From Puniceicoccales bacterium (lineage in GTDB: Bacteria > Verrucomicrobiota > Verrucomicrobiia > Opitutales > JAIRKQ01): DNA of 34,724 nt. The position numbers were made by a program, and so were the translations under genes. The DNA is taken from positions 1-34,724 of the forward strand of contig JAISXS010000047.1 in NCBI GenBank assembly GCA_031270385.1, given 5' to 3'. The notes under the pieces were generated by a model, which did not search any database, was not told the origin of the DNA, and was given only the letters and a program-made list of their open reading frames with translations. Within the stretch, counting starts at the first letter, position 1. Each line of letters opens with the position of its first letter. This document shows positions 1,612 through 34,442 of the stretch, piece by piece.

Positions 1612-3447
1612 TCATCTTTTGCGAATTCTTTCCGTCAACTGTTTGGTCTCCTTCGGCCATTTCGTCGGTAGTTTGTACTCATCCGAGGCAAGCGTCGGGT
1701 CCGCCGTCAGCTCACCGGGCTGCAAAAACCTGTCGTAGGTGTGGTCGTCGCTGCGAATTTCGACAACCGTTGGAGAAATAACATAAACTCGCTCTTTGAC
1801 TGTCTTTTCCTTTCCTGCGTGCTTGAATAACACACCAACTATCGGAATGTCCTTAAGCAAAGGCACTCCTCCGTTCGACGTACTGTTTACCTCAGTGTTG
1901 TATCCGCCGATCATCAAGCTCTGTCCTTCGTACAATACAGCCTGCGTATTCAACGAATGCTGCGTAACTGCTCCACCCGCCACCGATTCAAAGGACCCAT
2001 CGGAAATGTCAACGAAAAGCTTCATTTTTCTCCTGCCGTTGTTGTCGACATCCCCAGGTATGATGTGCGGGACGACTTGCAATTTTGTTGTCGCCGTCTG
2101 CGTGTACGCATTCGAACTATTAGCTCCAGATACAGTGGTATAGTGAACTTTACTCGTCTCCAAAATGGCAGCCACATTATCCAGCGTTAAAACGGACGGC
2201 TTCGACATAGTTTGCCCATTACCACTTTTTTCTATGGCATCGAGTGCAATCTCTATGGGTACGTTCCTTATTATTCCAGTGCTCCCAACTATTGTTCCAG
2301 TAGCGTCAGAATTTTTTGGATCTGTCCGAAATTTTATACTCCACGAACTATTTGGCGCAGTACCAGAGACTTTTATGCTGTTTAGGCCAATCGCCATCTC
2401 CGAGTTCTTATTGACATCCACGACTGCGGCATCGATTTTTATGACTTCGCAGGGAACATCGAGTGTCGCGATAATTTCTTCGTAAAACGGTATATTCTCC
2501 CGCCTATCACGGATTATTACGGCATTTAACCTCTGATCACACGTTATAAACCCAGGCAGCGTGGTCCCAGAGATGTCAACTGACTTTTCTCCAGGGATCC
2601 CTTCGCCGCTTTCACCCTTCTTGCCATCCGCTGTGCCCGACGAACCATCCCTCGCCTGTATCTTTTTTATACTATTGTTTATGTCCTTTGCGTATTGCGG
2701 CGTGTCATCGTGTATGCCGATCATTTGCTGCGACTCGGGTTTTTGAGCGCCACCAACGTTGACATTGAACGGAGAAAATACGCCTTCCGACCGTTGGCCA
2801 GAAATTATGCTCTGCAGCATGCTGGAAATACCAGGGACTGAGATTGATCCATTGGCGTAGTTAAACGTCATGTCGTACGCCCAGGCATACTTAAGTGGAA
2901 TTATTTTTACGATCGTTGTGTCCGAAATTTTACTCGGTACGAACTTCGCAGCAATATCATTTATGACACTCAAATATTGCGGTGGCGCCGTAACTATCAA
3001 AACATTGGCTTCCCCTATCCCGCGAAATGAAAAATCGGATGTCGCGAACTCAAGCCTGGAAAGAATGACGGATAGCGTTTCGATGCTATCCAAATCCATC
3101 CTAAAAATCTGCGTGTGCAATTCGGAACTCGGGTACACAAACATTATCTTTCCGTCGAAAAACCACACCAACCCATAGGCCTTCGTTATGTAATTCCAAA
3201 ATTCCACGGGATCCATTTTACTGAACCTACCGTTCACGATACGGTCAATTTTCCCGCTCACTATAACGGTCATCCCCTGCATTGCGAAGAAATCCTTGAT
3301 CAGTTCCGCCAGGTTCTGATTCCTTGCAAAGTGGTAGTAGCTTGCATTTGAAAATGGGAGCTTGGTATACGGGTCCTCCGCGACGGCCGCCAATTGGGAA
3401 CATGTCGCCACTAGAACGATTATCGAAAAAAATCTTGTAGTCTTCAT
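1612..3447 (-). CDS. sctC: Type III secretion system outer-membrane secretin (SctC/YscC family)
   Basis: The C-terminal secretin core reads GQSLMIGGY...GVPLLKDIPIVGVLFKH...RVYVISPTVV. T3SS-type blocks are present: N-terminal FWNYITKAYGLVWFFDGKIMFVYPSSEL (compare YscC LVWYYDG) and LFVDISDGSFE (compare IEDG). I set the start at the internal MKTTRFFSIIVLVATCSQLAAVAEDP, which looks like a signal peptide. That ATG overlaps the upstream gene's TGA as ATGA at 3444-3447. Confidence 0.9.
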   Translation of the reverse strand: MKTTRFFSIIVLVATCSQLAAVAEDPYTKLPFSNASYYHFARNQNLAELIKDFFAMQGMTVIVSGKIDRIVNGRFSKMDPVEFWNYITKAYGLVWFFDGKIMFVYPSSELHTQIFRMDLDSIETLSVILSRLEFATSDFSFRGIGEANVLIVTAPPQYLSVINDIAAKFVPSKISDTTIVKIIPLKYAWAYDMTFNYANGSISVPGISSMLQSIISGQRSEGVFSPFNVNVGGAQKPESQQMIGIHDDTPQYAKDINNSIKKIQARDGSSGTADGKKGESGEGIPGEKSVDISGTTLPGFITCDQRLNAVIIRDRRENIPFYEEIIATLDVPCEVIKIDAAVVDVNKNSEMAIGLNSIKVSGTAPNSSWSIKFRTDPKNSDATGTIVGSTGIIRNVPIEIALDAIEKSGNGQTMSKPSVLTLDNVAAILETSKVHYTTVSGANSSNAYTQTATTKLQVVPHIIPGDVDNNGRRKMKLFVDISDGSFESVAGGAVTQHSLNTQAVLYEGQSLMIGGYNTEVNSTSNGGVPLLKDIPIVGVLFKHAGKEKTVKERVYVISPTVVEIRSDDHTYDRFLQPGELTADPTLASDEYKLPTKWPKETKQLTERIRKR

Positions 3448-3911
3448 TTTTTCCCAAAGAAACTCAACAACGGAGATACGGCCGCGGAAGATTGCTTCCA
3501 CTGCAATACCATATTCCAAAAATCTATGTTCCGCACGAACGACTCCACGGAATCAACCAAAAAATCAAATGAAATGCTGACTAATGGAATACACTTCGTT
3601 GTCGTAGGCCGCCCAGTCCTCCTATCCAGCGACAAAATTTCGTCATTGTGAATAATTCTTGCAAAATTCGCCATAAGAAGGTATCGCAACCGTTCCTCAT
3701 TGGAATTCGCCGCATCCGCATTCCGTATCGGTTCGCCGAACATCGCCTGGATTACCAGGATACCCTTATCTCGTTGGAACACGCGAATTTCCACTTCTCT
3801 ATCAAGGACAGCGTAGCGCTCGCCGTACTCGTCACTTTCCCACTGCTCTATCCTGAACAACCCCGAGACTATATCGACTGCTTCATCATACTCCATGAGC
3901 GAGCGGCCCAT
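3444..3911 (-). CDS. Putative T3SS class I (CesT/SycE-like) secretion chaperone
   Basis: Small acidic protein with the typical chaperone layout: GILVIQAMFGEP...EERLRYLLMANF...LSLDRRTG...FDFLVDSVESFVRNIDFW. It is translationally coupled to sctC by the ATGA overlap. The start is uncertain: ATG at 3911 (155 aa), 3896, or 3986. The 3986 start would overlap the glyQS end. Confidence 0.55.
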   Translation of the reverse strand: MGRSLMEYDEAVDIVSGLFRIEQWESDEYGERYAVLDREVEIRVFQRDKGILVIQAMFGEPIRNADAANSNEERLRYLLMANFARIIHNDEILSLDRRTGRPTTTKCIPLVSISFDFLVDSVESFVRNIDFWNMVLQWKQSSAAVSPLLSFFGKK

Positions 3912-13540: not shown

Positions 13541-14389
13541 TTAAATGTTCTTAGATATCCCGGACTTCGAAGCGTATTCCCGCTGGATAACTTCCCTGAT
13601 TGTGTCCATGATTGTTTGCACATTTTTTTTAGAAGTACTGTAAGCTTCCTGCATTTCCTTCACATGGCTTAGGGTAAATTCAAAAAATTTCTCGGCTCTT
13701 TTCGCATCGGCGTTTGTAATGCTAGCCTCGTGTCTTAGGTTTGCTGTGGTGATGCTCATCGAAAAGGATACAACGCTCATGACAAAATTTATAATAGTTA
13801 CTACGAGTTTGATGATCTTGACTACCGTGCCTAAGATTTTTCCGGTACTGAGCCCACCTGCGACTCCGCTAAGTCCCGAGGTTACAATATTAACGATGCC
13901 GGTAGCAATTTTCATACATGCCGTTTTTTTGCTGGCTTTGTAGGTAGCATCCGCTTCTTTTATTTTCATTTCGAAGACTGAGGACGCTGCTTTATCTGCC
14001 ACTTTTATTTTCGTTATCATTTCATTGAAACGCGAGTTTCTCTGGTCTGCGGCTGATTCTTCAAGAATGACCATGACAAGAAAAAGGATATCCTCGTAGG
14101 AACATTTCTTGGAATTCGTGGAATCTACATCCAACAGTCGAATGGCACTGTGCAAATCTCCCATTTTAATTGTACCGCTATTCCCGGCTAATTCGAACGT
14201 ACGATCCGTTTGGTTCGGTATCAGTGCCGGATTGTCCAATGCGGAATGCACGGGGGGCACAACATCGTTTGGATCGGCAGTTGATACAATTTTTGCGATT
14301 TCAGCACCTTCTGATGACGGACCACCAATGGTTGGATCTTCGGTGGACGGCTGTGAAGTGCTATCGGAAATGTTTTTTGATTCCGACAT
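13541..14389 (-). CDS. T3SS translocator-like protein, minor/SctB-like candidate (282 aa)
   Basis: Last gene of the translocon operon, with AGGTGA 4 nt before the ATG. The N-terminus is Ser/Thr/Pro-rich (MSESKNISDSTSQPSTEDP). It has the block ILFLVMVILEESAADQRNSRFNEM plus a coiled coil, one long Gly-rich hydrophobic region (ATGIVNIVTSGLSGVAGGL...VVSFSMSITTA) and a C-terminal amphipathic helix. Confidence 0.55.
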   Translation of the reverse strand: MSESKNISDSTSQPSTEDPTIGGPSSEGAEIAKIVSTADPNDVVPPVHSALDNPALIPNQTDRTFELAGNSGTIKMGDLHSAIRLLDVDSTNSKKCSYEDILFLVMVILEESAADQRNSRFNEMITKIKVADKAASSVFEMKIKEADATYKASKKTACMKIATGIVNIVTSGLSGVAGGLSTGKILGTVVKIIKLVVTIINFVMSVVSFSMSITTANLRHEASITNADAKRAEKFFEFTLSHVKEMQEAYSTSKKNVQTIMDTIREVIQREYASKSGISKNI

Positions 14390-14421
14390 ATTTCACCTTG
14401 GTTTCTCCATTTTCGCACTGG

Positions 14422-15957
14422 CTATATATTGTGCGCAATGTCTTTTTTGGATTGAACGAGCTCCCCAATAAGCCTCGATAGATTTTGAATGCTTTTCTCG
14501 CGGCTATCGTCTGCCTTTTTCAGTGATTCCGAAATACCCTGGGAGAGATTGCTCACGGAATTTCTAATACCCTCTGTAAAGCCTTCCAACGACTTTCGCG
14601 AATCAGCTCTGTGTCCCTCGTTAGCCGACGCAAATTTCAAACCACCCCCGACAAGGCCTACTGCGTTTGAGATTATTTCACCTACTGCAGCATTTTTTTT
14701 ATCTATTCTCTGTTGCTTATCGGCCCTTTCACGCCTGTCATTTTGTACCTCCATTTTTTCGGCTGATGCGACAAGTTTGTCAGCCGTTTCATCCATCTTG
14801 ACTTCGAGTGCTTCACGGTTTGATATAACGTCTTCTTCCGTGAGGTCTTTTTCCGAGATCTCTGTGTCAGTTCTCTTCTTCACGCCCTCTTTATTGTTCT
14901 CATCGTTCTCATTTTTCTCTAATCTTTCTTTAGTTGCTGCATTATCTGCATCCTCTACCAATTTATTATCTTCTATATTCTTTTCATCATCTTCTGCCTT
15001 CTCTTTCGTATCCTTCACAACCTCTTTGTCTTCAGTTATATTCTCTTCATGTTCACCCACGTCCTTTTCCCGTCCTTCCACTTCATCCGTCTTTTTATCA
15101 TCTGCATTTATCTTTCCTTCCTCTTTCTCTATCTCCTCTTCGTCTCCATCCGTAGCAACTTCGTTTTTCTCCACCTCATCTTTCGTTTCATTAATTTCCG
15201 TTTCTCTCACCTCATCCCGTGTTTGCTCCACTTTTGCTTGCTCCGTTTTAAGGGTTTCATTTTTCGTCGCGTTCGTTGTTTTCTCTTGCGAGACTTCAGA
15301 AACGTCTGCCCCACTTTCAGCTGTATTTGAGGCGGTTGAACTTGGATCTATTGATGTTGACTTGTCGTCAACACCGGAACTTTTCGAATTGTTTTCTGAC
15401 GTCGCAGACAGCCCAAATGAGACAACACCGCCAACTAGAGCACCTGCTCCCTTGATCAAGTCAGATGTTGCATCGATGTACGCCTTATCTTTATTGGCTT
15501 CAGCGGCTTCGAGGGAAAATCCGTATACAAGCCTCGATAAATCCATGTTCATATTGTTGGCTACTCGCTTGAGCGTCGCCAAAACCTCCCTCCTCTCCTC
15601 TTGGACGTCAATATTCATCATCTCGGCAAATATAATAAGCTCGGCAATACTCATTTTGCTTAAATCCTTCTCGCTTCCGGCCCCAACCAAACTAAGCATG
15701 CTGCAGAGAGATCCATGGATATTCTCGAGGCCCTTATTGCCACTAATATAATCGGGAGAAGAAGGACTAAATATCGCCTCAGGCTGGCTAGGCCCGTTCG
15801 TCTCCTGCGGAACGTCTCTATCAACAACAACACTATCGCCAGTAGGATTCACGTCCCCAGGTTTAGGACTGGTTACGTTATCCGGTCCCTGATTTCCATC
15901 GCTTCCACCGACAGCATACGCGTTACCTTGGCTACCAATACCATCTACATTAGTCAT
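14422..15957 (-). CDS. T3SS translocator-like protein with large acidic insert (511 aa)
   Basis: GGGGGA Shine-Dalgarno upstream and a Gly/Asn/Ser-rich N-terminus. The block IAELIIFAEMMNIDVQEERREVL plus coiled coil is shared with its neighbours. Two Gly-rich hydrophobic segments (GAGALVGGVVSFGLSA and AAVGEIISNAVGLVGGGL) are separated by about 235 residues of E/K/D/T-rich low-complexity sequence. Confidence 0.5.
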   Translation of the reverse strand: MTNVDGIGSQGNAYAVGGSDGNQGPDNVTSPKPGDVNPTGDSVVVDRDVPQETNGPSQPEAIFSPSSPDYISGNKGLENIHGSLCSMLSLVGAGSEKDLSKMSIAELIIFAEMMNIDVQEERREVLATLKRVANNMNMDLSRLVYGFSLEAAEANKDKAYIDATSDLIKGAGALVGGVVSFGLSATSENNSKSSGVDDKSTSIDPSSTASNTAESGADVSEVSQEKTTNATKNETLKTEQAKVEQTRDEVRETEINETKDEVEKNEVATDGDEEEIEKEEGKINADDKKTDEVEGREKDVGEHEENITEDKEVVKDTKEKAEDDEKNIEDNKLVEDADNAATKERLEKNENDENNKEGVKKRTDTEISEKDLTEEDVISNREALEVKMDETADKLVASAEKMEVQNDRRERADKQQRIDKKNAAVGEIISNAVGLVGGGLKFASANEGHRADSRKSLEGFTEGIRNSVSNLSQGISESLKKADDSREKSIQNLSRLIGELVQSKKDIAHNI

Positions 15958-16001
15958 GACATTTATCCCCCAAAATAATTAAAATTACAATTACTTAATT
16001 C

Positions 16002-17189
16002 CTAAAAATTCCTGACAATATTCATTTTTGTTTCGTGTTCTGCCTTAAGATTTCGCGATGCCGCCTCGTACGCTTTTTTTATATCATTGAGATCAGATCC
16101 AAAGGCATCCATGAGTAAGTCTAGCTGTTGGCCGATTAAATCCGCATCCTGCCTTAGTTTGCTGATTATAGCCGATATCTTGTCTATGGCTAACCTCTTT
16201 TCGGCAAGGTCAAGATCCTTCTTCCCTTGAACTATTCCCTGCACTCCAGACGCGACTCCAGTGGCCACCTGAGCTACCATCGAGGCAATCTCAATGATTT
16301 TCAACACAGACGAAATGACGGCGCCTGAGGCTGCACCCAACGAAGCAACGGTCATGGCCACCATTATCAGGATCATAATGATATCTGCACCCAGTTTCAC
16401 CCACATTTTAATTTTCTTCATCGCTGGATCATTAATATCTGTCCCATTTGCGGCACAAACGACATCCATCACTAGGTCCGCTGCGATCTGTGCTGGGCTA
16501 ATGAACGACAAAGCTTTATCAATTGCACCATCCACTTTCCTGTTCTTGGAACACACTTTCACCAATTCCATTATCCCAACAACCAACATTACAAGGCCCA
16601 GTACTAATAATCCTCCCATTGGCCCGGCAACGGCACACGCAACTACCGTGGCAACCACTATTACTATTAACACAATAACTTTTATGAGAATCTCCCACCA
16701 CTTGTCGTTTTCTTCCGGTGGGTCGACTGTCGGACCGCCAGATGGCGATGTTCCGGCCTTTTTCTTCCAATCGTCTTCTTCGTAGGCGAGTTTTTCCGTT
16801 TGCTCCTGGGCGTATTTCGTAGCGTTTATGATCTCATTCGTCTGCGCGACTTGACGCATCCTGCCCATGTTGATCGAATTGACCGTATTCTCTATCGACT
16901 CTCCCTCTACTTTCGCCATCATTAGCGAGATAATTAGGTGCATTCTTTCCGGGGGATACTGTTTAAGCAACTCGTCGATCTGCGCGTTATCTATACACAC
17001 GTCGAAGAGTGAGTCTATGGTTCCGCTCCCAAGATTGAACTGAGTTTGGCCCTTTGTAGATGTGATATCAAAGGAATCGCTTGCCCCTGCAGGTTTCCCG
17101 GCTGGGTACAGTGCTTTATCTACCCTAGCCAATAGTGCATCGACTACGGATGGTTGGTCGCCTGTGCTGTTACTGACCGTGGTTGACAT
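16002..17189 (-). CDS. T3SS major hydrophobic translocator candidate (SctE / YopB-IpaB-CopB-like, 395 aa)
   Basis: Lies immediately downstream of the class II chaperone. N-terminus is MSTTVSNSTGDQPS. It has the block MHLIISLMMAKVEGESIENTV plus a coiled coil, and a bilobed roughly 45-aa hydrophobic hairpin (WWEILIKVIVLIVIVVATVVACAVAGPMGGLLVLGLVMLVVGIMELV). A second hydrophobic region (ADIIMILIMVAMTVASLGAASGAVISSV...) and a C-terminal coiled coil follow. Confidence 0.6.
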   Translation of the reverse strand: MSTTVSNSTGDQPSVVDALLARVDKALYPAGKPAGASDSFDITSTKGQTQFNLGSGTIDSLFDVCIDNAQIDELLKQYPPERMHLIISLMMAKVEGESIENTVNSINMGRMRQVAQTNEIINATKYAQEQTEKLAYEEDDWKKKAGTSPSGGPTVDPPEENDKWWEILIKVIVLIVIVVATVVACAVAGPMGGLLVLGLVMLVVGIMELVKVCSKNRKVDGAIDKALSFISPAQIAADLVMDVVCAANGTDINDPAMKKIKMWVKLGADIIMILIMVAMTVASLGAASGAVISSVLKIIEIASMVAQVATGVASGVQGIVQGKKDLDLAEKRLAIDKISAIISKLRQDADLIGQQLDLLMDAFGSDLNDIKKAYEAASRNLKAEHETKMNIVRNF

Positions 17190-17207: not shown

Positions 17208-17768
17208 TTATCTCTTTTTTCCCAACTGTTTTTTCGGAGATTTTTTTTCTTCGGCTAGTTTGGCCAATTCTTTTTCTACCATCGTGCTCGTCATCCTAGC
17301 TCTTGCCTCATATATCCGTGATTCTCTGTCGTTTTTGAATTTATCGTCGTTGGCAAGCGTCAAAAGCTCATCTATGTACTTCTTAGCAAGATCTAGCTGA
17401 TCAAGCCTGATGACGCATTCTGCCAAGCGCATGAGCATTTTCGGGGTATATTCCCCTTCGGCGAGAGCCATCCTGAAATACTGTGCCGCTGTTGTGTAGT
17501 CCCCAGCCATGAAACTAGCGGATCCGCAGGCCGATAGGTATTTTGAGGACATCGGTTGTAGCGTGCATAGCAAGGCAAACACGCCCTTTGCTTTTACGTA
17601 TTGTTTGTGTTTGTACATTTCGTGGCCAACCATGTATATCGCTTCTAGGCCGTCATCGCTTATGCCGTAATACTCTCGAAGGCTGAAGTTCCCGCTGATG
17701 ATTTTCTCTGCGGCATTTTTCAGGGCCTCTTCGTACTCTTTTCCTTGTTGTTCCTTTTTCTCTTCCAT
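17208..17768 (-). CDS. T3SS class II (translocator) chaperone, TPR-type, LcrH/SycD/IpgC/Scc2-like
   Basis: LREYYGISDDGLEAIYMVGHEMYKHKQYVKAKGVFALLCTLQPMSSKYLSACGSASFMAGDYTTAAQYFRMALA aligns by eye with the LcrH/SycD TPR core (L..L.GIS.D.LE.LY..AY..Y..G.Y..A...F..LC.LD......LGLG.C). Start set at MEEKKEQ (17768), with a GGGAG Shine-Dalgarno that overlaps the stop of the upstream giant gene. Confidence 0.8.
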   Translation of the reverse strand: MEEKKEQQGKEYEEALKNAAEKIISGNFSLREYYGISDDGLEAIYMVGHEMYKHKQYVKAKGVFALLCTLQPMSSKYLSACGSASFMAGDYTTAAQYFRMALAEGEYTPKMLMRLAECVIRLDQLDLAKKYIDELLTLANDDKFKNDRESRIYEARARMTSTMVEKELAKLAEEKKSPKKQLGKKR

Positions 17769-17781
17769 AAATTTTATCTCC

Positions 17782-20700
17782 CTAGCGAATGTTAGAAGTC
17801 GTGGTTTTCCCGTAGTCACCGACTGATTTCAAAGTTTGTGTGCACGCGCCTATATTCGAGTTCACTTCCTGCATGAATTGTTGCATCTTTGTGCTCATTA
17901 GATTTGCATCCGTTGATAATTTGTCGCCGTGGAGGCGGACTTGGTCTTGCCAATTTGTCACGGCTGTGAGTAGGGTTTGTTCCTGGACGTCGATGTTGCT
18001 CACGTCCTTACTCCAAGCCTTTTTATCTGTCCACTTTTCACCATCTTTATTGTAATGGGCGACGGCGAAGCGTAGTGTTCCACCTGAATCGACGCCATAG
18101 CTTATACCGAACGTTGTGTAAAAACTTGAAAGTCCAGTCGACGCTATTCCGCCGTTTTTCACCACGTCTTTCATGTATGTGTTTAGGTCGGACATTGGTA
18201 CATCACAAGACTCGAACAATTCTTGGCTTGTTATGGCCCCTTGCCTGTCCTGGCCTTGGATTTCGCCATCCGTAGCTTCCCTATAAACTCGTTCGTATAT
18301 CCATGACAGTGCTTTGAGCATTTTGTTGTTTACTCGGATTTCCTCGTTAACTTGCTCTATTTCTCTTATCTGTTCTGCTAGCATTAGTCGTTGTATTTCT
18401 GTCATCGAATACATTACCGCCACTGCGACGTAGTGTATGGCTAATCCGACGTAGCAATCTGTTTTGGAGAATGATTCCTGGTATTCGCTCTCCGATATGA
18501 ACATATCTTCTCCGTCTTCATAAATCAGCTTGTATTCGTAGTTTATTTTTCCATCTTCGGCGACCTTATCTATTCTTTCGATGCCAGCGACGAGTTTGTA
18601 CTTACCATCCGAGGTTGGCACCGGCTCTGAAGCTGTGAGGCAAAGACTTAGGAGGTCGTCCATGGTGGCGCCGGTGTTAGCTTTCATCTCTTCGTATCTC
18701 TTCTTTGTTCCGTCGAATGACATTCTTGCGTTCATCATGGCCTTATATTCCTTGGTTTCTTCGTAAGCCTTCAGTTTGGTTCTGTATTCTTCTTCGTTTG
18801 CGTCTCTGGCTGAAACGAGCTCGTTGTACGCCCCTCCTACTGACAATTGCCCGAGAACGGCGTTACCGTAGGCTTTTTCGGCTTTTTGGCGTTGTGTTTT
18901 AAGGGTGTCGGCTAATTCTTTTTCAATCTCTACAGCATCGGCAGCATTGGAGATGACAGTGGTGAGAATGTCATACAGTTGGCCTTTTTGGGTTTCGGAA
19001 AGCGTTGTACGCGGGCCACCATCGCGGTCAAAGTAGGGCTCAAGCTTTGCATAATCGGCTGGCGTCAAAGCGAACGTGCTAATCTGAACACCGGTAAGCA
19101 TGTTGAGAAACATGCCTTTTTGCTTTTCATCCTCATTTGCATATTCATCGTATGTAACATTTCCATTGGCATCGACTTTAGCCTTTTTAAATAGTTTGTC
19201 GTTGATACTCTTCCATTCGTTATAAAGGTCCTTCATTGCTTCTTTGCCATTCTTTCCAGATTCCGCGGCGAAGTCGGTCTTTATAATTCCGGCCATATAC
19301 TGTCCGGCGGTGTATGACTTGTTTTGTTTTATGGCTGAGCCAGTATAGGTATTACCCTGGTGGTATTCCTCTTCCAAATCATTTTTTATTTTATTTAAAA
19401 TAGTCCACAGTTCGTCCAGTGTTTTCGCATTTGGCACAGAATTAAAATCTCCTATAATTAAATCAACCGCGCCAAAAACACTTTCAAATGCCTCTCTGTG
19501 TCCCTCTGTCATCCTAGTACCATTATCGTTTCCTTGGCCGCCGTCGTTATAAGCATCTCTGGCTGCTTTTAGTGCCTGAGCTAACGAATCTGTGCTGAAC
19601 ACACTACTACGAAGCACGCTAACTATCGTTTCCAGGTAATTTTCAGCGGCGGAAAGCCGGCCCTTTGCCTCTTCTTCTATGGCTATGGCCGTGTCGAACT
19701 CGTCTCTGTAATCTTTGACGCTCTTTGCCCCAAATTTTTTCGCCTTATCCTCCAATTTTTTCATTGCTTCGGCGAGAGCTTCCTTGTGTTTTCCTTCTTT
19801 ATCAAGTGATTCTATTGTCGTTTTAATTGTATCGTCGTAATTATAGCCGAGTTCGGTGAGCGCTGTTCTAAGTCTCGTATAATCGTACATCGTCGCTCCG
19901 CTGTCGTATTGTTTTGGTTTTTTATTTCCATCGAGCTCTGGGACTACGAGTTTCAACAGGTCATTGTAACTCATATTAGACTTGTCATTGGTGCCATCCC
20001 CATCGACATCAAGATTTTCAAGCTCGAACACCTTTTGATCCTTTGCTACATTAACCGCATTTTTAGCGGTCGACACATCCGCCTCGAGCGAAAGAAACGT
20101 TTTCCCACTACCATCCAAATCTCTGGTATATAAGCCATTATAGGCATTCCTGGCGTATATCCATTTTTGGTACGCCAGCGACGTTGCATTTTCCAGATAT
20201 TCGCTTTCATGAAAGTTTTTCATGGATTCGATGTCTGCCATTTTTGCTTTTTCGAAGGCCACTACTGCGCCTGCCGTTTGCACAGCATTCTCAGCATCCT
20301 TAAGGTCTTTTTCAAACTGTTCCAATTCCGACTCGAGTCCGTTTATGCTTTTTTTATCGACAGTGTTGCCGAATAGGGCATTTGCTAGGTTTGTTCTGGC
20401 CGTTTCCAGAGTTCTCGCTGCATCTAATTTGGTCCTCATACTTCCTAGGGTGTCCTTCAGCCCTTTTAGGCTTACACTCCCGCCCTCGCCGACGTACGTA
20501 CAATCAGCATTAAAGAGTGTCGATTCATCATCCGTTAAAAAGGCTTCCTCAGGCAAGTTTTGTTCCAAAGCCTTATCCAGGGCCGTTTCGAGCGTGGTTA
20601 CATCGTTTTTTAAATCGTCAAAGCTCTTCGTTCCATGATAGGTAATGTCGGGGGACTCCTCCGTACCCAATGTAAATCCGGCGTAATTTCCATCATCGTC

Positions 20701-31475: not shown

Positions 31476-34442
31476 ATGGGCGTACTAAAAAGACTGTTTT
31501 TTCTGGTTCTAGCACTGGCCGTGATCGCGGTTGCTGTGGTGATGTCGCCATTCGTACAAAAAAGTGTTGCAATGTGGTTTCTCAAAAAACACTTCGAGAA
31601 TGTCTCGCTGGAGAGAATTTCCGCTGGCCCGAAAACCATTAGAATATCTGGATTTTCGCTAGATGTTGGGAATACTGCGCTAAAAATTGGTGACTGCAAA
31701 GCGAAGTGGTCACTGCGGGAGCTAATATTTTCGAAGCGCATAAATATCAAGGATCTTACGATAAGTGGCCTGGGTCTTAGCGTGGTAAACGAAAGGGATG
31801 ATGGAGAATACAGTAGCATAAACTTGGATCCAACGGAAATTCACAGGGATATTACGGGGAAGTCAATTCCTGTTTTATATTTTGCCAGATTTGCAAGTAA
31901 TCCGCAGCTCCCAGTAAAGATGACCATAGATCACATGCACATCACTGGGTTCGTCAATTTAAGCGATGTCGCGGTGTCCGCAGTAACTTTGGACGGTGTT
32001 GGATTTGCCCCGCTCGGGACAGCAATTGTGAAAATAAATGCCGCATCGGATATCGATATCGGGCAATTGGGCCTAAATATAAATACCAACTGCGACATGA
32101 AAATTTTTCAATCAGATGAGGCCATTCTGAGTGACATTGATTGCAACCTTACCTGCGAGATGGCAAGGGGTCGAGGGCAACAAGTGAAAACATTCACGGC
32201 GATGTGCTCTTCAAAAATTGACGAATTTACAAACTTATACCATTTTTCCCTGAAAGATGCGAGTGCGCCTGAAACTGAAGATGTTTGCCGTGCCGATGTC
32301 AAGTTCGATAGGAAAAACGGCAAATTATTCGCATCCTATGCCCATGGTATCGATATCAATATGTTCAAGGAAATACTCGGTGAGCTTCAGCTGCCGAGAT
32401 TCGAAACGGACCTCAAATTGAATGGGGAATTCGAACTGGAAGAGTGGCAGGGTTTGCTAAAGGGATCCGGAAGATTGGCCATGGCTAATATATTTGTGAA
32501 ACAACTTCCATCACTAAGATCTGACTTGATGTTTTCTGGGGATTTTACCCTAAAAATGGTAAACGGCGTCTTGTCAATCAGTTCATTCAACGGAATTTGC
32601 GATAGCGTCGGCGATTCCCTGAGGATACTTTGCCATTCCACGAATCCGCTAACAATTTGGAGCAAGGCATACGGGTTCTCAGAGGAAGCGAGCATACTAA
32701 ATTTCGGACAAAGCATAGCGAAGGTGGTTATCGACCGTTTTAATCCAAAAATCATGTTCGCGGGAGGATCGTCAATTGTCGTTGATACCAAGGTTTCCGG
32801 CCAGTTCGATGTTCTGTCGAAAGGTGGCGAATTTTTCATTAAGCCAAGTGAAAATTGTCCGCTAAAGTTCGACAAATGCACGATCTCCGAAAGGAAGAAA
32901 AAATATTGTGATGGCGTAGATCTTTCGTGCCAATTGGATTTGACGCTTGGAAAAGGCATAGCAGTCAACTTGGACGAAGTTTCCATAGGAGTTGGAGAGG
33001 ATGATGACATAGTTGTAGGATCGGTATCGCTGGCATCCGCGGCTGACTCCAATAATTATGAAATATCATGCGATATCCTCGGGAACGCAGAGAAGTTGAA
33101 CAAATTATCGCCACTCTTTCGCGACATACCGCCGGTAAAGTCCGGAAGTTGTTCATTGCACGCGGACTTTACACGCAAAAATCTGGAAATTAACGCTAAT
33201 GCGGAAATTAAACTGAAATCTATCGCAGTAGGTGACAGAATGACGCCGGTTAGTGGTCAGATCGCGCTTACGGCTGCCCACACGCCCGAGTTGTCGAAGG
33301 TGAACGCGGAAGTAAACCTCAGTGGCAAGCATAGTACGGCTGCTCGCATGGCGTTTGAGGCGGCCACTCCACCGTCTAATCTTACGACAGATGTAAAGTT
33401 CGAGCTACGCGGAGACGCCATATCGCTACCCGACATCGCTACCATCATAGCGGTACCGTTAAAAATTTTTGAGGGGAGAAGCGGGTTTGCAGACGATTCT
33501 ACGGATATCACTGGGGATATGGACATCAAGATCATAAAAAAACCTACGACCTCGGAATGGTCCAGGTTTGCAGGTCGCGGGATAGCAAATGTTTCGAAAA
33601 TCTTCCTCTCCGATTCCTTCGCCATCGACAAATTTGAATTTTGCTGCCTAATTGATCCATCGGAAATTGACCTTAAAACCATAACTTTCTACGTGGCTGA
33701 ATCTCCATTTTCAACTGACGCTAAGCTAGAGTTTTTGGATAATGGAGCGAAAAATTCCTACGCATTTTCGATGCAAGCGGCATTTGATATGCGTGATATT
33801 GGAAAAATTTGCAAAATGCTGATGCCAGATAAACAGGCAGTCATGGAAGGCTCTGGAAAGATTACGGCGAAATTTGCATTGGAGGGAGATAGTGCCATTG
33901 AGACTGTCAGGGCAGCCCCTGGAACGGTTGACATCGAATGTTCGAACGGGGTCATACAGCCGACGAAGTGGCTGAACGAAAAAAATAACGCTATCGTAGA
34001 CGTCATCGGCCATGCTGGTGCGTTTTTAGCCCGAAGGGATATGGACAGCGGGTTCGGTGCCACAGCCGCCCTCATCGACAGTCTGAGATCCATAGAGTAC
34101 GATTCAATAAAAATCGCACTGAAGCGCAGGTCCGACCTAAATATTGCCATAACAGAGGGTCTTTTGGTCGGTCCAGAAATCCTTGTCGACGCCACAGGGA
34201 AAATTTCATACGTAAAATATAAGAATTTTTTGAGCTATCCGCTTACACTTAACGTAAAAATCGACGCAGCAGGAAATTTGGGTGACTGCCTGAGTCGACT
34301 TGGATTGACGCATGGTATCAACGACACGACGTACATGTCTGGACCAAGATTCTGCGTCAAAGGGACAGTCGGGAATCCAGACTATTCCGATCTCCCAAAA
34401 GTTTTATACCAAATATTTAGATTGGGCGTTCCAGCGAATTAG
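31476..34442 (+). CDS. Large inner-membrane-anchored, beta-rich envelope protein, AsmA/TamB/YhdP-like (tentative)
   Basis: N-terminal signal anchor (LFFLVLALAVIAVAVVMSPF), about 950 aa without further TM segments, and a C-terminal motif GPRFCVKGTVGNPDYSDL that resembles AsmA-family C-termini. It starts 19 nt after the tkt stop. Confidence 0.5.
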   Translation: MGVLKRLFFLVLALAVIAVAVVMSPFVQKSVAMWFLKKHFENVSLERISAGPKTIRISGFSLDVGNTALKIGDCKAKWSLRELIFSKRINIKDLTISGLGLSVVNERDDGEYSSINLDPTEIHRDITGKSIPVLYFARFASNPQLPVKMTIDHMHITGFVNLSDVAVSAVTLDGVGFAPLGTAIVKINAASDIDIGQLGLNINTNCDMKIFQSDEAILSDIDCNLTCEMARGRGQQVKTFTAMCSSKIDEFTNLYHFSLKDASAPETEDVCRADVKFDRKNGKLFASYAHGIDINMFKEILGELQLPRFETDLKLNGEFELEEWQGLLKGSGRLAMANIFVKQLPSLRSDLMFSGDFTLKMVNGVLSISSFNGICDSVGDSLRILCHSTNPLTIWSKAYGFSEEASILNFGQSIAKVVIDRFNPKIMFAGGSSIVVDTKVSGQFDVLSKGGEFFIKPSENCPLKFDKCTISERKKKYCDGVDLSCQLDLTLGKGIAVNLDEVSIGVGEDDDIVVGSVSLASAADSNNYEISCDILGNAEKLNKLSPLFRDIPPVKSGSCSLHADFTRKNLEINANAEIKLKSIAVGDRMTPVSGQIALTAAHTPELSKVNAEVNLSGKHSTAARMAFEAATPPSNLTTDVKFELRGDAISLPDIATIIAVPLKIFEGRSGFADDSTDITGDMDIKIIKKPTTSEWSRFAGRGIANVSKIFLSDSFAIDKFEFCCLIDPSEIDLKTITFYVAESPFSTDAKLEFLDNGAKNSYAFSMQAAFDMRDIGKICKMLMPDKQAVMEGSGKITAKFALEGDSAIETVRAAPGTVDIECSNGVIQPTKWLNEKNNAIVDVIGHAGAFLARRDMDSGFGATAALIDSLRSIEYDSIKIALKRRSDLNIAITEGLLVGPEILVDATGKISYVKYKNFLSYPLTLNVKIDAAGNLGDCLSRLGLTHGINDTTYMSGPRFCVKGTVGNPDYSDLPKVLYQIFRLGVPAN

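Follow-up and report, generated by a model that had tools for sequence, protein, structure and literature searches.

The window, that is, the whole stretch of DNA analysed here, is 34,724 nucleotides long and comes from a Puniceicoccales bacterium (contig JAISXS010000047.1). It contains a gene for a 1565-aa protein, which lies in an operon with type III secretion system (T3SS) translocon genes. The genes considered were as follows.

22509..23069, reverse strand: small upstream ORF, 186 aa from MKKDEK, start codon uncertain
17782..22479, reverse strand: gene for the 1565-aa family member, the largest of about 50 cluster representatives
17208..17768, reverse strand: LcrH/SycD-type class II (translocator) chaperone, 186 aa, TPR (TIGR02552)
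16002..17189, reverse strand: 395-aa protein, candidate major translocator (SctE-like), with four strongly hydrophobic segments (KD19 1.7–3.2)
14422..15957, reverse strand: 511-aa acidic protein with a low-complexity centre, missing from the short-member loci
13541..14389, reverse strand: 282-aa SseD-like minor translocator (SctB-like), with one hydrophobic segment
1612..3519, reverse strand: SctC, the T3SS outer-membrane secretin (TIGR02516; Pfam Secretin and T3S_SPI-1_N0)

The 1565-aa product is 172 kDa with a pI of 4.5, and GGAGG precedes its ATG at 22479. The TAG stop at 17782–17784 is followed by GGAGATAAAATTT and then by the chaperone ATG at 17768. This reproduced two details of the preliminary description, the 13-nt gap to the chaperone ATG and a GGGAG that overlaps the stop. 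The spacings to the two neighbours are 13 and 29 nt. The N-terminus, described as rich in Ser, Thr and Asn and poor in charge, was indeed so: residues 1–30 are rich in T, V, S and N, with one K and one D. The composition of the whole protein resembles that of many coiled-coil proteins.

The chaperone matched NCBIfam TIGR02552 with E=3e-21 and 75 bits, which is below the curated cutoff of 104.8, and its homologues at 50–64% identity came exclusively from Puniceicoccales MAGs. The NCBIfam model translocon_SseD was matched by six of the SseD-like (A4) proteins scanned, with a best E of 6e-7 (below the curated cutoff) and E=0.006 for the protein in the window. The 511-aa and SseD-like proteins were paralogous in their C-terminal 70 aa (hhalign P=1.4e-12). 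SctC scored 317 bits against TIGR02516 (E=1.4e-94), above the cutoff of 238. The presence of this secretin in the same window indicated that the genome encodes an injectisome. Its gene lies about 14 kb away, among housekeeping genes.

The same gene order was found in nine loci and in the window: small ORF, family member, LcrH-type chaperone, multi-TM protein, a middle protein that is not always present, and SseD-like protein. The small upstream ORF was in all nine compared loci, including the LcrG/LcrR slot of locus L011, and had a basic C-terminal tail, KKxVRRLK(I/V); it had no match in Pfam and no similarity to LcrG. The position of the member in the operon was constant whatever the surrounding genes in all syntenic loci examined, which were from Puniceicoccales/Opitutales MAGs.

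In L011 the order was sctW-tyeA-?-yscX-?-sctV(FHIPEP)-142-aa ORF-member-TPR chaperone-402-aa protein. This is a Ysc-like order, and with TyeA, YscX and SctV directly upstream the member falls in the lcrV slot. The orders lcrG-lcrV-lcrH-yopB-yopD and sseA-sseB-sscA-sseC-sseD are matching gene orders. LcrV, PcrV and AcrV occupy the same gene slot, in a series of small ORF, tip, LcrH-type chaperone and translocators. The LcrV-type order downstream of sctV was found in L011, and its distal part recurs in the window and the other loci. LcrV is paired with a small LcrG encoded immediately upstream, and a conserved small ORF always preceded the member here. The slot of the member is also that of SseB in the sse order, and the operon has an SseD-like minor translocator. 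On the other hand, ipaD (ipgC-ipaB-ipaC-ipaD) follows the translocator genes, whereas the present gene precedes both the chaperone and the translocators.

The loci of two short members (L009 and L010) contained exactly one non-membrane protein and two hydrophobic ones around the chaperone. This count fits a complement of SctA, SctE and SctB. The gene had been placed in the tip-protein position from the window alone, and in all the syntenic loci recovered it occupied the tip/filament slot of the translocon operon.

The full-length 1565-aa query found no match in the first search of genome contigs. Exhaustive search gave a family of 50 cluster representatives, and all the named or titled ones came from Puniceicoccales, Opitutales or Opitutia MAGs. 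The isolate names of the MAGs suggest a termite-gut origin. In other genomes, homologues with 36–45% identity occupy this operon position, so that the 1565-aa ORF is not a chance one; an orphan status of the gene was ruled out by synteny and the exhaustive search. The family is one of uncultured Verrucomicrobia and is without prior annotation.

Searches with the whole protein, its C-terminal 237 aa and profile A1 against Pfam, NCBIfam and PDB sequences gave chance matches only (DUF5643, MtrB, ribosomal L9 and an isomerase). The lack of domain annotation in these libraries and a coiled-coil-like composition would be expected if this were a coiled-coil or surface protein that neighbours the translocon genes and has no role in the T3SS. 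The conserved position in all syntenic loci, the short gaps on both sides and the SctF-like C-terminus (below) make this reading highly improbable.

Alignment of the family divided the protein into conserved modules and inserts.

22354..22446, reverse strand: N1 part of the N-terminal module, residues ~12–42, GYxITQxxIDxVxNPF(L/F)
22015..22353, reverse strand: insert A, residues 43–155, I/N/S-rich, which splits the N-module
21841..22014, reverse strand: N2 part of the N-terminal module, residues ~156–213, FYFLxGxYDQxxLxx(I/M)(F/Y)(D/E)A(L/I)
18655..21840, reverse strand: insert B, residues ~214–1275, acidic, A/E/L/D/K-rich, 1% Pro
20230..21678, reverse strand: eight degenerate repeats of ~50–70 aa in insert B, anchor (L/V)F(N/D/G)xxG
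17785..18654, reverse strand: conserved C-module, residues 1276–1565, which begins LLSLCLTASEP and is common to the family

N1 was matched in most members by a jackhmmer profile. Insert A, about 110 residues between N1 and N2, was present in the closest relatives only, and in the remaining members N1 directly adjoins N2. Insert B, between N2 and the C-module, is about 1,060–1,100 residues long; its site contains 12 residues in the short members and from 12 to 1,096 across the family. The C-module includes a small beta-hairpin unit at residues ~1297–1320. Full-length members range from 263 to 1565 aa, and the short ones (263–430 aa) contain both the N- and the C-terminal modules. This indicated that the 1565-aa protein is a core of about 350 aa with an insertion of about 1,100 aa and a second one of about 110 aa. 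The length variation in the family is concentrated at one site, that of insert B, and the termini are conserved. The preliminary description had seen a tip domain carrying an N-terminal extension of roughly 1300 aa. This had to be abandoned, as the extra mass consists of inserts and a conserved N-module is present.

Residues 366–805, within insert B, had no homologue among 1.8 billion representatives. The repeat anchors are at residues 268, 354, 402, 471, 541, 591, 654 and 701. In a leave-one-out HMM test seven of the eight units outscored all 200 shuffles, a result that is biased by the selection of the units by their anchor motif. Self-comparison by BLASTP showed no internal repeats; they were visible only with the motif-anchored HMM.

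Conserved termini, which serve axial assembly, and a hypervariable centre of differing lengths are also found in flagellins, and giant flagellins (>1000 aa) form filaments (PMC6248924). The flagellin Pfam domains gave no significant match in the family, one member having a stray Flagellin_N match at E=6.4. The context of flagellins is the flagellum, whereas that of the present family is the injectisome. We regard the likeness as an architectural analogy and not as homology.

The C-module was modelled with AF2. A model of the last 340 residues based on a 29-sequence alignment had a mean pLDDT of 80, and a single-sequence model of the last 292 aa (pLDDT 49) was unusable. The former predicted three parts.

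18271..18438, reverse strand: first long helix, residues 1348–1403 (model residues 123–178), block pLDDT 70–97
17989..18270, reverse strand: mixed alpha/beta 'distal' segment, residues 1404–1497
17788..17988, reverse strand: terminal long helix, residues 1498–1564, 67 residues

A helix of 56 residues, a segment of about 95 and a helix of 67 residues agree with the helix, mixed and helix layout that had been proposed for the last ~225 residues. In 33 members the final 71 residues, NIDVxEQ through the terminal N(I/V)R, aligned without gaps. The first long helix opens with the moderately hydrophobic LAIHYVAVAVMYSM, for which the family motif is PY(F/Y)ALAIMYEK. The KD19 hydropathy of this start is 1.46, and the family median of the maximum KD19 is 1.31. 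The values were under the transmembrane level in 36 of 41 members; those of the 395-aa protein family were 2.3–3.5. A transmembrane or translocator reading of residues 1342–1360 was rejected on these values and on the E/K interruptions present in most members.

Foldseek search of the PDB with the AF2 model ranked the IpaD core (residues 122–321) first, followed by flagellins, FlgK/L-type junction proteins and the EspA filament. All matches were non-significant (best E=0.014, prob 0.35, TM 0.13–0.40, RMSD 8–17 Å), and generic coiled coils (colicin Ia and the PI3K regulatory subunit) were in the same list. The superposition on IpaD gave a TM of 0.13–0.22 and an RMSD of ~17 Å. The structure comparison suggested in the preliminary description did put IpaD at the top, at a non-significant E=0.014. 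The EspA filament subunit 7khw (E=0.69) had a TMt of 0.40, the best target-normalised value among the listed axial-protein matches.

The predicted layout was compared with those of known tips and filaments. LcrV is composed of long helices and an alpha/beta domain, and its two long helices are parted by this domain in the same plan as in the AF2 model. LcrV-family tips are typically ~290–360 aa; the present family covers 263–1565 aa. The IpaD core has matching proportions, with a helix of ~50 aa, a distal domain of ~95 aa and a helix of ~60 aa. Bsp22 and EspA also have the helix, alpha/beta and helix plan (PMC12607632). EspA is 192 aa long, and the 1565-aa protein is 8 times larger. The big insertion of the latter precedes the first long helix and is not in the inter-helix loop, in contrast to EspA and Bsp22. 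Bsp22 provides a precedent for a tip family without sequence similarity to the others.

Profiles were compared by hhalign with references of 1–7 sequences each, the reference sequences having been verified against the PDB. None of the three regions compared (C-module, N-module and helix 1) matched IpaD/SipD/BipD, LcrV or EspA above the reversed controls. A2 against the IpaD/SipD/BipD alignment gave P=0.22 (reversed control 0.06), the family against LcrV gave P=0.13 (reversed control 0.29), and the family against EspA gave P=0.77, with no Pfam EspA match. The IpaD and LcrV models matched no family protein in the Pfam, NCBIfam and PDB profile searches. Of the claimed resemblance to IpaD, SipD, BipD and LcrV, the helix layout and the first rank of IpaD in Foldseek therefore stood, but sequence relatedness was undetectable.

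These results bear on the possibility that the protein is a genuine but very divergent IpaD/SipD/BipD or LcrV/PcrV tip, forming a pentameric cap that carries extra mass. The LcrV slot in L011, the shared plan and the Foldseek rank of the IpaD core are consistent with it, and the best hhalign alignments, although non-significant, place the C-terminal helix on those of IpaD and LcrV. On the other hand, the P values (0.13–0.22) were not better than the reversed controls, model matches were lacking, the TM to IpaD was low, the upstream ORF is not LcrG-like, and the minor translocator resembles SseD, not YopD or IpaC. We consider this possibility quite unlikely.

A similarity to the needle protein SctF was found at the very end of the protein.

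17785..17889, reverse strand: SctF-like last 35 residues, residues 1531–1565, aligned to the very end of SctF

The last 35 residues aligned by hhalign to SctF columns 44–78 of 78, with Prob 70–79% and P from 1.6e-5 to 4e-5. The score was 30.7, compared with ~13 for the reversed control. In 150 column shuffles the mean was 10.5 (sd 2.2) and the maximum 17.7, which put the observed score at z~9. PF09392 (T3SS_needle_F) was matched weakly by 14 of 29 members, in register with the profile end and all below the gathering score. A search with an SctF HMM covered the window and 26 loci, 2,230 ORFs in all, and the family C-termini ranked top. An extension of the similarity over the whole 71-residue end was rejected, as the confidence of low-mact and global hhalign was zero beyond the last 35 residues. 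Against SctF, neither the N-module nor helix 1 outscored the reversed controls. The classical tips showed no such similarity in the same test, and LcrV against SctF gave nothing.

What is shared with SctF (MxiH, PrgI, BsaL, YscF; PF09392) is the C-terminal helix including the terminal xN(F/I)R. This helix lines the needle lumen. SctF is a helix-turn-helix of 70–90 aa with a PxxP turn, whereas the members are 263–1565 aa long and have in the AF2 model a single continuous helix without PxxP. The N-terminal half of SctF was not confidently aligned to the members.

A weaker version of the C-terminal motif (...ARNI) also closes the translocator-like proteins of the operon, and an ending of the form ...(R/K/S)N(I/F) is common to all four operon proteins. 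By hhalign (P=3.4e-5), the C-terminal ~55 residues of the family resembled the last 54 aa of the multi-TM 395-aa protein. This suggested that the motif might be a lineage-specific secretion or docking signal and not a polymerisation helix. One alternative is that the protein is a translocon-associated secreted substrate outside the axial structure, such as a hydrophilic extra translocator or a large effector, using the class II chaperone and carrying the C-terminal motif for sorting or chaperone binding. The adjacent LcrH-type chaperone, the moderately hydrophobic helix at residues 1342–1360 and the large size, more typical of effectors, would also agree with this. However, significant SctF similarity was confined to this family and was not seen in the translocator-like proteins, and the hydropathy was below the transmembrane level in most members. 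The operons of the short members would be left without a tip candidate, and effectors rarely have strictly conserved, length-invariant termini across a whole order. We regard such a role as unlikely.

No needle gene or small needle-like ORF was found in the window or in the 26 loci, which cover ~10 kb on each side of the operon. This absence, the SctF-like C-terminal helix that reaches to the last residue, and the flagellin-like plan, in which giants do form filaments, raised the idea that the needle or filament is built mainly from this protein, a giant SctF type in place of a small needle protein, in the way that giant flagellins take over from ordinary ones. The loci are of limited span, and the T3SS genes are scattered, SctC being ~14 kb away, which makes it likely that the needle gene is elsewhere. 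Moreover, the match covers the C-terminal half of SctF only, with no similarity to the PxxP turn or the N-helix, and the gene is in the tip slot and not in a needle or apparatus operon. A giant needle subunit therefore appeared very unlikely to us.

The reading that we prefer, with somewhat better than even confidence, is that the gene encodes a distal axial component of a Puniceicoccales injectisome, a counterpart of SctA in the form of a tip complex or an EspA/Bsp22-like filament. The analysis showed where the gene sits in the operon, to what family it belongs and how that family is built, what secondary structure is predicted, and that the C-terminus is SctF-like. Function, in the sense of secretion, assembly on the needle and the form of a pentamer or a filament, is inferred.

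On the reading as a distal axial component, the protein would leave through the needle as one of the middle substrates. The helices at 1348–1403 and 1498–1564 would pack as a coiled coil, and the SctF-like last 35 residues may attach to the needle lattice or lengthen it. The distal surface, where the translocators are received, would consist of the alpha/beta segment and the N-module. The acidic, largely helical and repeat-bearing insertion of ~1,100 residues would project outward in the manner of flagellin D2/D3. Insert B may thus serve as a spacer, an adhesin or an antigenically variable surface.

A further proposal, which goes beyond this and which we hold as rather doubtful, rests on the analogy with the flagellum. 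The family would represent a new, flagellin-like class of tip-filament subunits, with a core of needle-type terminal helices and an insert on the surface that can grow beyond 1,000 residues. The extracellular parts of the machine, namely the tip/filament and the major and minor translocators, would all share an ancestral needle-like helix for docking, so that needle, tip and translocon would form one homologous axial series, like the flagellar rod, hook, junction and filament.

To our knowledge, the T3SS tip families (IpaD, LcrV, EspA, Bsp22) are mutually unrecognisable. If the present family is a further one, it extends this list outside the Proteobacteria. In the literature searched, no paper dealt with Puniceicoccales together with type III secretion. 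The detectable sequence link to the needle may help to explain the docking of tips and the evolution of the distal injectisome. The series from 12 to 1,100 residues at one site is a natural experiment on the mass that a needle-distal protein carries, and such length tolerance is relevant to the engineering of T3SS display and secretion. For the bacteria themselves, the family would be a pointer to host-contact functions in symbionts.

The large reading frame described at 17782..22479 on the reverse strand was present, with 1565 codons and an ATG after GGAGG, and encoded a protein of 172 kDa and pI 4.5. As also described, 13 nt separated its TAG stop from the ATG of the next gene, and GGGAG overlapped the stop. 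The next gene encoded the expected translocator chaperone, an LcrH/SycD-type TPR protein (TIGR02552, E=3e-21, under the NCBI curated cutoff). Three further genes followed the chaperone on the same strand with intergenic gaps of 18-44 nt, and gyrB, gyrA and a Na+/H+ antiporter gene came after the 282-aa SseD-like gene.

Features in the window
1612-3519, reverse strand: SctC, the T3SS secretin (TIGR02516, 317 bits, exceeding the cutoff)
within 13541-17189, reverse strand: 282-aa protein, weak match to the SseD translocon model
14422-15957, reverse strand: 511-aa acidic protein
within 13541-17189, reverse strand: 395-aa multi-TM protein with four strongly hydrophobic segments
20230-21678, reverse strand: eight degenerate repeats of ~50-70 aa (residues 268-750), in the central insert of the 1565-aa protein
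22509-23069, reverse strand: small ORF upstream of the large gene, conserved in 9/9 loci compared

The secretin gene indicated that the genome carries an injectisome. It lay ~14 kb from the translocon operon, adjoining glycine-tRNA ligase and tolQ/tolR-like (ExbB/ExbD) genes. T3SS genes in the window were dispersed among housekeeping genes, as they are in the Chlamydiae. A 568-aa Ser/Pro/Thr-rich protein (24284-25990, reverse strand), with its sole strongly hydrophobic segment at the extreme C-terminus like a tail anchor, gave no family match; it is a possible effector or membrane-anchored protein. Downstream of the transketolase gene, a 988-aa ORF (31476-34442, forward strand) had no Pfam or NCBIfam match.

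A word-indexed homologue search returned the query only. With this long, compositionally biased protein it missed all family members, and likewise with the family profile; the orphan look of the protein is an artefact of that search. The family was recovered through synteny at the neighbouring chaperone and by exhaustive HMMER search. Chaperone homologues came exclusively from 'Puniceicoccales bacterium' MAGs, on contigs syntenic with the window that carried large unannotated proteins (1353, 1126, 1427, 1311 and 913 aa) in the same slot. BLASTP against the first three gave 36-45% identity across the C-terminal 440-770 residues, weaker conservation of the N-terminal ~150-280 residues, and unalignable middles. 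When residues 366-1565 were compared with 1.84 billion representatives, phmmer recovered 50 proteins with E<=1e-3, of which 43 reached E<=1e-10, and all 50 aligned to the last ~320 residues. Every member bearing a name or record title was from a Puniceicoccales, Opitutales or Opitutia MAG.

Short yet complete members (263-430 aa) were numerous and contained two conserved modules. The N-module carried the motifs GYxITQxxIDxVxNPFL... and FYFxxxxYDQxxLxxIFDAI. The C-module started with LLxLCLxASTPxP, a small beta unit and then PYFALAIMYEK...IEKINEEIxxNN, and ended with NIDVxEQxxLTxISNxQDxxRxYGDxLSTDxQxxTTKMxQYxQ...KSxGDYxKxIxSN(I/V)R; the final 71 residues were without gaps in 33 members. Counted from the end of the N-module to the start of the C-module, the spacing was 12 residues in members of 308 and 369 aa, ~450 and ~610 in intermediate ones, and 924, 992 and 1096 in the top three by size, of which the window protein is the largest. 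Its N-module was also interrupted by ~110 extra residues, leaving pieces at 12-42 and 156-213. Because short members carry both modules, the spacing varies across the family and the N-module is split, the protein is a ~350-aa core with two insertions, instead of the tip domain on an N-terminal extension proposed in the preliminary description.

The insert between the modules (~214-1275) was acidic, with A, E, L, D and K abundant and proline at 1%. Residues 366-805 had no homologue by phmmer among the 1.84 billion representatives. The repeat unit ran from (L/V)F(N/D/G)xxG through a loop to an amphipathic helix, (S/T)(L/F)xxLxxx(V/L)xx(L/A)E. The test for the repeats was biased, its units having been picked by an anchor motif. 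Apart from one marginal match in the member P0015, the repeats were not found in other members' inserts.

The genomic slot was conserved. In two short-member loci (L009 and L010) the order was small ORF, member, TPR chaperone, multi-TM protein and SseD-like protein, as in the window. Around the chaperone, such operons encoded a single non-membrane protein and exactly two hydrophobic proteins, which matches the tip, major and minor translocator complement SctA/SctE/SctB (nomenclature from PMC10114087). Six proteins of the 282-aa family, among those scanned, matched the SseD model (best E=6e-7). The operon order likewise equals sseA-sseB-sscA-sseC-sseD of SPI-2. Other short members (P0041, P0043, P0045 and that of L008 at 182-1225) were 335-369 aa and lay on small contigs; at L008 no chaperone gene lay directly downstream. 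These members may be stand-alone paralogues or come from a different lineage.

On the metagenomic contig ENA ERZ19048635 (L011, 4699-13084), TyeA and YscX homologues adjoined SctV, followed by a 428-aa member. The order was 377 aa, TyeA, 128 aa, YscX, 127 aa, FHIPEP/SctV, 142-aa small ORF, 428-aa member, TPR chaperone and 402 aa. YscX is characteristic of Ysc-type injectisomes, and the Yersinia order is yopN-tyeA-sycN-yscX-yscY-lcrD-(lcrR/lcrG)-lcrV-lcrH-yopB. The L011 order equals it, the family member taking the place of lcrV. That the family is an unrelated neighbour of translocon genes is hardly credible beside these gene orders.

The small upstream ORF (142-244 aa across loci), in the LcrG/SseA position, had a GEPNP(V/I) motif and a basic C-terminal tail, KKxVRRLK(I/V). 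It matched no known family and may be a dedicated chaperone or regulator.

Searches of Pfam, NCBIfam and PDB (phmmer and profile) matched no tip family. Reference sequences of IpaD, SipD, BipD, LcrV and EspA were confirmed against PDB (~2.0-2.15 bits per residue); hhalign of the family alignment against IpaD/SipD/BipD, LcrV and EspA gave P=0.13-0.77, with reversed controls equally good. The N-module and first long helix matched nothing compared. A divergent true IpaD/LcrV homologue, lacking any tip-family signal in these searches, is distinctly unlikely.

A single-sequence AF2 model was unusable; one built on a 29-sequence alignment was usable (pLDDT 80, pTM 0.56). It predicted a helix (1348-1403), an alpha/beta segment (1404-1497) and a helix (1498-1564), in agreement with the plan of the proposed tip-like domain. 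Foldseek against PDB gave no hits at E<=1e-3. The IpaD core (122-321) led the ranking non-significantly (E=0.014, TM 0.13-0.22). Below it came flagellins, proteins of the hook-filament junction and, at TMt 0.40, the EspA filament; generic coiled coils were listed too. Membership of the IpaD or LcrV family is not established. As a general plan the prediction fits the class of T3SS axial and tip proteins, among them Bsp22 and EspA in their AlphaFold description (PMC12607632).

When 29 members were scanned singly against Pfam, 14 weakly matched T3SS_needle_F (best E=0.0012), their last 30-40 residues falling on profile positions 33/37/41-70 of 71; every other family was matched by two members at most. 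For hhalign, the needle subunit (SctF) alignment comprised seven proteins: MxiH, PrgI, BsaL and YscF, confirmed in PDB; PscF and SsaG, partly so; and EscF, without a PDB match. The last 35 residues of the family aligned to the C-terminal helix of SctF from end to end, at Prob 70-79% and P=1.6e-5 to 4e-5, with a score of ~30. A reversed control reached ~13, and 150 column shuffles 10.5 +/- 2.2 (maximum 17.7). IpaD, LcrV and EspA gave nothing against SctF.

When the SctF HMM was run on the window and 26 loci (2,230 ORFs in all), family C-termini ranked first and no separate small needle gene was found. The longest match was the 428-aa L011 member (HMM positions 16-78), and no confident similarity extended past 35 residues. 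The window protein being itself the needle subunit is very unlikely.

The four secreted-type operon proteins all terminated in ...(A/S/T)(R/K/H/S)N(I/V/F), the 395-, 511- and 282-aa proteins (13541-17189, reverse strand, and equivalents in L001-L011) sharing ...I(A/S)(R/K)NI. Over their last ~70 residues these three families were homologous to one another (P=1e-8 to 1e-12 by hhalign), and they were also weakly related to the C-terminus of the large family (P=3.4e-5 for the 395-aa family). Among the four, the large family alone reached significance against SctF. The 511-aa protein had an extremely E/K/D-rich low-complexity centre between Gly-rich, mildly hydrophobic segments, and shared a paralogous C-terminus with the SseD-like protein; between loci it ranged from 308 to 579 aa and was missing from L009 and L010.

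One docking helix may be common to the needle, the tip and the translocators. The motif may instead be a lineage-specific signal, which keeps alive a non-axial, translocon-associated substrate or effector, an unlikely reading. The hydropathy of the large family (median maximum KD19 = 1.31) argues against a membrane role.

We lean slightly towards reading these proteins as a new family of distal axial T3SS components that would build a tip complex or an EspA/Bsp22-like filament. On this reading a needle-docking core would be made by the conserved termini, and the insert between them would face outward; the analogy, one of architecture, is with flagellins, giant flagellins among them (PMC6248924). 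What the analysis shows is the operon slot, the family with its architecture and predicted secondary structure, and the SctF-like C-terminus; that the protein is secreted and assembles on the needle, in what stoichiometry, and what the insert does are inferred. No paper in the literature searched treated Puniceicoccales together with type III secretion. Tip and filament proteins are already known as a type of T3SS component; what is new is the taxonomic home, the needle-like C-terminus and the insertion series from 12 to 1,100 residues.
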